Shown: positions 23,598 to 24,075, counted from the stretch's first letter. The stretch is DNA of 24,957 bases from Micromonosporaceae bacterium (GCA_035695905.1 DASRRF010000673.1:1-24957); one strand, 5' to 3'. Program-made: numbers and translations. Notes: a model not told the origin generated them from the letters alone.

Positions 23598-23995
23598 CAC
23601 CTCACCACCAGCCAGGCCAGGACCGCGGAGACCACTATCCACTGTAGATAGATGGAGGCAATCATCAGCGGCGCGGGTACCCGGCGCTGGCGCAGCCGGA
23701 GCACCATCGCCTGCGGGGTCAGGTGGATGAACGTCACCGCGTGGTACGCCACGAAGGCCAGCGCGACAACGTTCAGTACGATCAACCACGGACTCGCGGA
23801 CCAGTCCAGGAACTTCTGGTACTCCGCCGCACCGCGGCCGACCGCGCGTACCAGAAGCAACAGGTAGAGCACGATCCACGCGACGAACACGCTGCTGATT
23901 TCGCGCGCGACAAACGCGGTGTAGGTCCGCCGGTCCAGCCACCAGAACAGCCGTACCTTCGGCTTGTACAGCCGGGCGACGTTGTGTTCGCTCAC
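23597..23995 (-). CDS. frdC: Fumarate reductase membrane anchor subunit C
   Basis: YKPKVRLFWW..Y..F..RE motif and HAVTF; three hydrophobic segments; GAGGAGG RBS. Confidence 0.88.
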   Translation of the reverse strand: MSEHNVARLYKPKVRLFWWLDRRTYTAFVAREISSVFVAWIVLYLLLLVRAVGRGAAEYQKFLDWSASPWLIVLNVVALAFVAYHAVTFIHLTPQAMVLRLRQRRVPAPLMIASIYLQWIVVSAVLAWLVVR

Positions 23996-24075
23996 GTCGC
24001 CTCCTCGCCTGCGGCTCGGACGCGCCGCTCGCGCAAGCTGCTGAGCCTGATGGTTCGCTCGCTACGCTCGCTCAC
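23988..24075 (-). mobile_element. Putative 80-bp MITE/REP-like insertion at the frdB/frdC junction flanked by an 8-bp direct repeat (GTGAGCGA)
   Basis: Direct repeat at 24068-24075 and 23988-23995. Internal AGCGAGCGTAGCGAGCGA motif, 7-bp stem (24013-24019/24041-24047, one G-T pair), own SD, and a 27-aa mini-ORF at 23992-24075. Confidence 0.5.

Follow-up and report, generated by a model that had tools for sequence, protein, structure and literature searches.

MIRUs are used worldwide to type tuberculosis strains, and we know of no answer yet to the questions of how they move and whether their mini-ORFs matter. As Supply et al. (1997) is summarised in PMC12548453, PMC3184786 and PMC4473831, a MIRU is a dispersed operon repeat of 40-100 bp with a small ORF that shares 4 nt with the stop of the gene before it and 4 nt with the start of the gene after it; start codons are given as the insertion sites, the ORF being coupled at -4 (PMC12548453, PMC3184786). 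Other short elements with comparable parts are the REP/REPIN palindromes with their RAYT enzymes, which are tagged by GTAG or CGTC (PMC3733652), and the Ssn motifs, which are ssDNA hairpins of 20-50 nt (PMC11893778). The heptamer GCGNAGC is the 'mini-hairpin DNA' of Hirao and co-workers; it allows any N and has a Tm of 76.5 °C as DNA, and for the related GCGAAAGC the RNA version has a Tm of 39 °C (PMC13037366). Motifs of this type are known at single-strand replication origins and at a phage N4 promoter (PMC13037366).

Here we analyse a window (the whole stretch of DNA studied, 24,957 nt) from a Micromonosporaceae bacterium (GCA_035695905.1, DASRRF010000673.1:1-24957), in which an 84-nt element separates frdB from frdC. 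In common with MIRUs, the element is dispersed inside operons and co-oriented with their genes, lies within the 40-100-bp size range, and carries a small ORF that overlaps both neighbours by 4 nt in the same orientation. The likeness extends to tetranucleotide direct repeats with filled and empty sites, to tandem arrays whose units are linked by RTGA, with a period of 80 nt in loci of Micromonospora and Microbispora, and to an 11-nt core, GAGCGNAGCGA, that is followed by a Shine-Dalgarno sequence (SD). The element differs in adding an invariant 25-nt 5' hairpin module, absent from the MIRU-bearing mycobacteria examined, in having at both ends hairpins that covary in alignments, whereas MIRUs are described without dyad symmetry (PMC4473831), in its hosts, which are non-mycobacterial actinomycetes and Acidimicrobiia, and in showing no significant overall sequence similarity to MIRUs. 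The design principle is already known from MIRUs and hence is not new (PMC12548453, PMC3184786). New are the family, its two-module build, the covarying G·A-zippered GNA-loop hairpin, the core common with MIRUs, and a CRTGAGY junction bias; our literature search for the peptide, the motif and 'MIRU-like' actinomycete repeats found no description of the family.

Repeat unit at the frdB/frdC junction

On the minus strand, frdB, which has 2Fe-2S and 4Fe-4S domains, ends in ...AAA CAG TGA, and the terminal GTGA opens an ORF of 27 codons whose TGA overlaps the GTG of frdC (Table 1). Four bases 5' of this GTG lies GAGGAGG, so that the spacing from SD to start codon is merely 4 nt. The octamer GTGAGCGA is present at both ends of the element (24075-24068 and 23995-23988), and deletion of 80 nt consequently leaves a plain GTGA overlap. 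The adjacent junctions of the operon are likewise compact, with a GTGA overlap between frdA and frdB and TGATG between frdC and frdD. A preliminary description had read the locus as an 80-nt insertion into a GTGA overlap that brings its own mini-ORF and ribosome-binding site, and we reproduced its coordinates, the 27 codons and GAGGAGG, together with the plain overlap that is restored by removing 80 nt and the overlap-type junctions elsewhere in the operon. Its 8-nt terminal repeat held in part: RTGA is common to all copies, and the extra GCGA is peculiar to the window copy.

Table 1 Features of the repeat unit and of its flanking genes, in window coordinates
Feature	Position	Strand	Evidence
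Whole repeat unit, 84 nt, GTGA to GTGA (80 nt net insertion; 27-codon mini-ORF plus stop)	23992..24075	-	Five more copies, 89-95% identity
5' GTGA: frdB stop (TGA 24074-24072) overlapping mini-ORF start (GTG 24075-24073)	24072..24075	-	Sequence reading
Hairpin 1 (5' module)	24053..24075	-	Base 1/base 23 covariation; MFE of RNA model is the same fold, energy not significant
Invariant 25-mer (hairpin 1 plus CA)	24051..24075	-	Invariant across family
Linker with semi-conserved GGCTCAGC motif	24033..24050	-	Alignment
Hairpin 2 (3' module), 3' arm comprising SD and frdC start codon; GCA loop at 24012-24010	23990..24032	-	RNA fold, compensatory change, family covariation
GAGGAGG, Shine-Dalgarno for frdC contributed by the element	24000..24006	-	In 6/6 near-identical copies
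3' GTGA: mini-ORF stop (TGA 23994-23992) overlapping frdC start (GTG 23995-23993)	23992..23995	-	Sequence reading
frdB, iron-sulfur subunit, upstream gene	24072..24821	-	Pfam Fer2_3 2e-33, Fer4_8
frdC, membrane anchor subunit C, downstream gene	23597..23995	-	Pfam Fumarate_red_C 1e-31

A soil-metagenome contig from another run spans the filled frd site with zero differences. In soil metagenomes, the depth over the element is many-fold above that of its flanks, as expected of a repeat. Given the independent bridging contig and the multiple copies reported below, chance and assembly artefact could be ruled out as sources of the spacer.

Two further observations concern the surroundings of the element. 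At window positions 24351-24387, the soil-metagenome contig depth reaches about 3,000-6,000 compared to tens elsewhere; this peak is the conserved Fe-S cluster motif of frdB/sdhB, which is common to many organisms and not specific to this genome. The fumarate-reductase operon itself (window 23238-24957) is patchy in the lineage, as frdC was present in just 5 of 60 other genomes of the family that were sampled.

Copies in the genome and empty sites

The host genome is a soil MAG of 840 contigs that is 71% complete. It contains six copies of the 84-nt unit that are 89-100% alike, plus diverged copies, and a relaxed pattern of the 5' module has 11 instances, compared to none when the pattern is reversed. 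The six near-identical copies lie between frdB and frdC, between two ABC-transporter genes, between a DUF993 gene and a gene for a xylose-isomerase-like TIM barrel, between the genes for pyruvate kinase and an acyl-CoA thioesterase, before scpA, and before pheS. All six are co-oriented with the downstream gene. Four of them, including the window copy, sit exactly between stop and start, and for the other two the 5' TGA is not the stop of a preceding gene. Of the 11 module instances, eight form mini-ORFs (13-27 codons) whose terminal RTGA coincides with the start codon of the next gene, and in three the reading frame continues into the gene that follows; one of the 11 is a solo 5' module of 42 nt, described below. 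The copy at the DUF993/TIM-barrel locus (C337) measures 82 nt, so that its frame continues into the gene. Tandem arrays were not found in this genome. ORF length is only weakly discriminating evidence for the flanking genes, since neighbouring frames are also open in GC-rich DNA.

The preliminary description had named two kinds of support for an insertion, namely many copies at gene overlaps and empty sites in frdBC orthologues, and both were obtained. Most copies occupy a stop/start overlap or a start codon, and every one has the orientation of the gene that follows it. The frdB-frdC junctions of five other genera of the family are all bare 4-nt overlaps (four ATGA and one GTGA). Neither a single copy nor orthologous junctions with an unrelated spacer, the outcomes that it had named as contrary, were seen. 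Two other loci have their empty counterparts as well: genome G057 carries the exact empty site of the DUF993/TIM-barrel copy, with the same flanks around a single GTGA, and the ABC-transporter locus (C207) has an ATGA overlap in three relatives, a genome of the same genus included. A low-depth soil contig that joins the flanks of the frd element through 23 other letters, reading as an ATGA overlap, gives a weak hint of a further empty site. We conclude that the spacer between frdB and frdC is very probably an inserted repeat element. A candidate orthologous insertion at the TIM-barrel gene (L135 compared with C337) was rejected, as the upstream genes differ.

Junctions and target site

Comparison of the pheS and scpA copies with a sister genome showed that not every insertion added 80 nt cleanly. 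In the sister genome, pheS reads ATG ACG TAT after a native SD; here, GTG AGC TAC comes after the element, and about 19 nt of the native leader, SD included, are missing. The copy at scpA lies in frame, 18 nt upstream of the native GTG, at a position where the sister genome has no RTGA. Two insertions took the place of native leader sequence. With these junctions, the direct repeats range from 4 to 11 nt, RTGA always being included, and the 3' RTGAGY often looks element-derived. The earlier proposal that the element targets (A/G)TGA gene overlaps therefore needs to be widened: most copies do sit on overlaps or starts, but the target is the start codon and not strictly an overlap, given the two of six copies without an upstream stop, the three in-frame fusions among 11 instances, and the two leader replacements.

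The junction preferences were derived from 93 non-redundant coupled copies. The base preceding the 5' RTGA is C in 76 of these, and the 12 nt upstream of this RTGA are G-rich and resemble a native SD. The two bases following the 3' RTGA are G (77/93) and C (70/93), which makes Ser the second codon in 71/93. At empty sites, the start is mostly followed by AAC, ACC, ATC or ACG.

Covariation of the two hairpins

The first 23 nt of the element follow the scheme (R T)(GAGC)(GAGC) G N A (GCGA)(GCGA)(A Y), with GCGNAGC as core. In the predicted hairpin 1, six Watson-Crick pairs (1-23, 2-22, 5-19, 6-18, 9-15 and 10-14) are interleaved with five G·A pairs (3-21, 4-20, 7-17, 8-16 and 11-13), and base 12 remains free as a one-base loop. 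Among the matches listed, 126 family members from named genomes could be compared at the terminal pair: bases 1 and 23 are A-T in 65, G-C in 54 and other combinations in 7. Single subfamilies of the 3' module include both pair types as well as A·C or G·T intermediates, and the 1-23 switch has therefore occurred more than once. Furthermore, C6/G18 appears as T/A and T/G in Nocardia and Micromonospora. In these alignments, covariation at 1-23 with independent switches supports the pairing predicted for hairpin 1. The RNA model returned exactly this fold as the MFE structure, with an energy no better than that of shuffles under RNA and DNA nearest-neighbour parameters; nearest-neighbour models fail for motifs of the GCGNAGC type (PMC13037366).

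GCGNAGC is invariant in hairpin 1, with a free N (C in 55, G in 28, A in 26 and T in 17 of the 126 members among the matches listed), and recurs in hairpin 2, so that both hairpins are built around the mini-hairpin motif. Some Nocardia copies use the mini-hairpin sequence GCGNNAGC in its place. The element differs from the described mini-hairpin DNA in that nested GAGC...GCGA units extend the motif to a putative 11-pair G·A/G-C zipper, and in that this zipper is part of a dispersed repeat.

Hairpin 2 has the general form TCAYG-stem-CC-GA-GCGNAGC-GA-GG-stem-CRTGA(G), which in the subfamily of the window copy becomes CGCCTCC-GA-GCG-GNA-CGC-GA-GGAGGCG and includes the SD and the downstream start codon. 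The window copy consists of an outer stem, tandem G·A, a GCC/GGC stem and a GCA loop. Its predicted RNA fold has -23.0 kcal/mol and a z-score of -2.5, with 2 of 200 shuffles equally good; hairpin 2 of a Micromonospora copy reaches a z-score of -5.4. The copies of this genome show a compensatory change in the inner stem, which reads GCC/GGC in two of them and GCG/CGC in the other four, and the N of the loop is C, G or A. Across 42 aligned members, 80% of the pair cells are standard pairs, compared to 22-40% with the partner slid, and ten pairs have changed on both sides. The covariation score is 0.19, compared to 0.108 for shuffles, and none of 500 shuffles reaches 0.19. The alignments thus show covariation in both predicted hairpins.

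These data also bear on whether the mini-ORF encodes a functional 27-aa peptide, or whether the unit is a leader peptide or a cis-regulatory RNA specific to frdC. The mini-ORF is kept open and phased, its N-terminus M/V-SERSER-I/T is invariant, and the variable twelfth base falls on a synonymous Arg position (CGN), all of which would be expected of a conserved peptide. Yet the changes M/V and I/T correlate exactly as the base pair demands, and N12 is the free base of the GNA loop, which explains its look as a synonymous position. Beyond residue 8, the peptides vary freely between subfamilies, and one copy has lost the mini-ORF frame. A role specific to frdC is opposed by the presence of the same unit before unrelated genes, by orthologous frd operons that do without it, and by an Rfam search of 23850-24200 that gave no match at E up to 1. 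We therefore regard a functional peptide, leader or frdC-specific regulator as highly improbable. Given the covariation and the switches at 1-23, selection at the peptide level was set aside in favour of base pairing.

Variants of the modules were also noted in this genome. At C107 (G000:C107:14915-14956, minus strand), a solo 5' module of 42 nt, consisting of hairpin 1 and linker, is directly followed by ATGA and forms a coupled mini-ORF of 13 codons; the two modules of the element can hence occur apart. Three other sites (G000 C615:85-165, C140:~219-240 and C350:565-586) carry a variant of hairpin 1 in which a TT loop replaces G-N-A (GAGCGAGC-TT-GCGAGCGAA), and two of the three form in-frame fusions with the gene that follows, in one case transketolase-like and in the other a response regulator.

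Distribution in actinomycetes

Other genera of the family, and a second family of the same order, also carry full-length copies, at 77-80% identity. A scan of 185,579 species genomes located the 25-nt 5' module at 120 loci at least. Hosts among the matches listed are Micromonospora, Nocardia, Kitasatospora, Nonomuraea, Microbispora, Kribbella, Nocardioides, Phytohabitans, Streptomyces, Iamia and many Acidimicrobiales MAGs. For the 126 members from named genomes among these matches, the tag is ATGA or GTGA without exception (126/126), the ORF ends in ATGA or GTGA in 114, and the modal ORF sizes are 27 codons (41 members) and 26 codons (23 members). Six named loci among the matches listed, e.g. 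L062, L078, L114 and L134, are tandem arrays with a period of 68-80 nt, in which the units are chained by a shared RTGA.

Complete chromosomes contain 12-37 copies of the module at up to 2 mismatches, compared to 0 for the control; 37 copies were counted in Nocardia sp. NBC_01499 and 15 in Phytohabitans flavus. A 'phylum-wide' distribution was considered and then corrected, when 400 genomes drawn evenly from the phylum yielded a single other genome with the module. The distribution is patchy, with a concentration in certain large-genome actinomycetes and certain Acidimicrobiia.

The family offers the MIRU design in cultivable non-pathogenic actinomycetes such as Micromonospora, Nocardia sp. 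NBC_01499 and Phytohabitans flavus. Considering the clear empty sites, the 12-37 copies per genome and the two covarying hairpins, a relay through a 'throw-away' ORF and the role of the G·A-zippered mini-hairpin are directly testable there. For genome annotation, the family accounts for recurrent mini-ORFs starting 'MSERSERI...' or 'VSERSERT...' and for spurious N-terminal extensions.

Two single copies deserve mention. An 81-nt copy in Phytohabitans flavus (L043:~6488-6568), a member of a different actinomycete family, is about 88% identical to the subfamily of the window copy, which suggests strong conservation or horizontal spread of this subfamily. In Nocardia pseudovaccinii (L051:2332-4146), the 5' module and about 27 codons are joined in frame to the C-terminal two thirds of a DnaE-type DNA polymerase III alpha. 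The Pfam match to the NTPase domain begins at position 68 of the profile, which points to an insertion within a dnaE-type gene or to a split of the gene.

Proposed relay and integration

We are confident that the element is a short, non-coding, non-autonomous actinomycete repeat that integrates at translation-start sites; from its build we infer, in addition, a ribosome relay, translational coupling and integration by microhomology. It is composed of a 5' hairpin with an RTGA foot, a short linker, and an SD-holding 3' hairpin that ends in RTGA, and here it most likely entered an ancestral GTGA stop/start overlap of frdB and frdC. The frame of the mini-ORF is phased, with 26-27 codons from the upstream stop to the downstream start. 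A ribosome terminating on frdB, with hairpin 1 in its mRNA channel, could re-initiate on the overlapping GTG and translate the 27 codons, thereby melting hairpin 2, which would otherwise mask the SD and the GTG of frdC. It would then terminate on the TGA of the mini-ORF and re-initiate on frdC. We consider such a relay from frdB through the mini-ORF to frdC somewhat more probable than not, based on the established termination-reinitiation coupling at -4 overlaps and on the precedent of the MIRUs (PMC12548453).

Under this relay, frdB and frdC probably stay translationally linked, and the translation of frdC here probably depends on passage through the 27 codons. The insertion would be nearly neutral, with frdC translation becoming more strictly dependent on upstream translation, and it may also tune FrdC.

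As to integration, it may rely on microhomology between the SD-spacer-RTGAGY junction of the element and the SD-start region of the target gene itself, the crossover point being variable. The targeting of start codons would then be accounted for, and we hold this reading with low to moderate confidence.

Mobilisation

The preliminary description had suggested an HUH/TnpA(REP) transposase as the partner of the element. Under this reading, the element would be a REP- or PATE-type hairpin repeat that is moved as single-stranded DNA by an HUH Y1 enzyme, i.e. a RAYT or an IS200/IS605 TnpA. The element does resemble REP/REPIN sequences (PMC3733652) in its short, GC-rich, strand-specific hairpins, which tolerate stem mismatches and stand at both ends, each with a conserved tetranucleotide foot. 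GCGNAGC, moreover, forms an ultra-stable mini-hairpin that is specific to DNA (PMC13037366). In three complete chromosomes, 49 of 64 copies have the hairpin strand on the presumed lagging-strand template, assuming a terminus opposite dnaA; gene orientation alone may explain this bias.

The expected enzyme was searched for as PF01797 (Y1_Tnp) in this genome, which is 71% complete, and in five other carriers of the element. Only G078 was positive, and no match was found in this genome, G077, G079, G010 or G030, while the same search gave matches in six control genomes. Two of the negative carriers, Nocardia sp. NBC_01499 and Phytohabitans flavus, are represented by complete chromosomes. Unlike in REP/REPIN systems, a RAYT/Y1 gene was thus not found in most carriers of the element, and the suggested partner did not receive support. 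The foot tag is RTGA here and not GTAG or CGTC; it doubles as stop and start codon, and the element sits on start codons with a phased ORF. The survey of GTAG/CGTC REPs (PMC3733652) did not include actinobacteria. Taken together, we rate mobilisation as a REP- or PATE-type substrate of a Y1 enzyme as very unlikely.

Another reading makes the element a substrate repeat of a small GIY-YIG single-strand nuclease, related to the Ssn motif, which it resembles in consisting of hairpins in the size range of those ssDNA motifs. None of 66 members, nor the window copy, matches the published degenerate SRM pattern (PMC11893778) on either strand. In this genome, Nocardia G077 and Phytohabitans G079, all GIY-YIG matches lie in frames of 585-680 aa, a UvrC-like size, and no stand-alone GIY-YIG gene of roughly 95 aa was found in these three carriers. 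With the pattern unmatched and the small gene not found, this reading is largely refuted and has next to no probability left.

Vectors and master copies were looked for as well. The 25-mer is absent from the viral contigs searched and the unit from the plasmids searched, and a phage or plasmid vector was rejected on these grounds. An autonomous master copy was likewise rejected, since in three complete genomes no gene is flanked by a pair of 5' modules and the close pairs are tandem units only. More speculatively, the 23-nt G·A-zippered hairpin and the GAGCGNAGCGA core might be the recognition site of a putative ssDNA/RNA machinery that copies elements into start regions by microhomology, with MIRUs as a branch of one actinobacterial superfamily that has the 3' module only. 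We regard this as rather unlikely; if true, it would give a handle on how repeats of the MIRU type move.

Relation to MIRUs

Reference MIRUs were taken from G196, a Mycobacterium-like genome of 5.1 Mb with at least 38 PE-domain genes, which we infer to be a slow-growing Mycobacterium. Two of its loci are useful reference sequences for the comparison, namely a tandem array of four MIRUs of 53 nt (L196, reverse complement of 1000-1270) and a MIRU-bearing, senX3-regX3-like spacer (L197, reverse complement of 820-1000). The gene after this spacer has a product that, we presume, begins like RegX3.

The MIRUs of G196 read RTGA..GCGCCG..GATGCA-GAGCGNAGCGA-TGAGGAGGAGCGGCGC..RTGA. They have in common with the 3' module of the element the 11-nt core, an SD after the core, RTGA ends, a short closing stem and a phased ORF. 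The element could accordingly be a bona fide homologue of the mycobacterial MIRU family instead of a separate family of the same design. In favour of homology, the succession of GAGCGNAGCGA, GAGGAGG and a terminal RTGA is the same as in the 3' module, and the family HMM (nhmmer) ranks the MIRUs first in every such locus. The E-values are 0.04-5 in only 16 kb, though, and the loci had been preselected by the 11-mer core. MIRUs also do without the 25-nt 5' module, which was absent from two MIRU-bearing mycobacterial genomes even at 3 mismatches. We therefore consider homology possible but doubtful. As far as the sequences indicate, the element and the MIRUs follow the same design and possibly have the GAGCGNAGCGA-bearing module in common.

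The core was also met in another context in G196. A multi-copy insertion sequence of the ISL3 family (L170:1460-1515; also L168, L172, L188, L190 and L198) carries a hairpin with a 10-bp stem, and the loop of this hairpin holds the GAGCGCAGCGAGG core, as in MIRUs and the element studied here.
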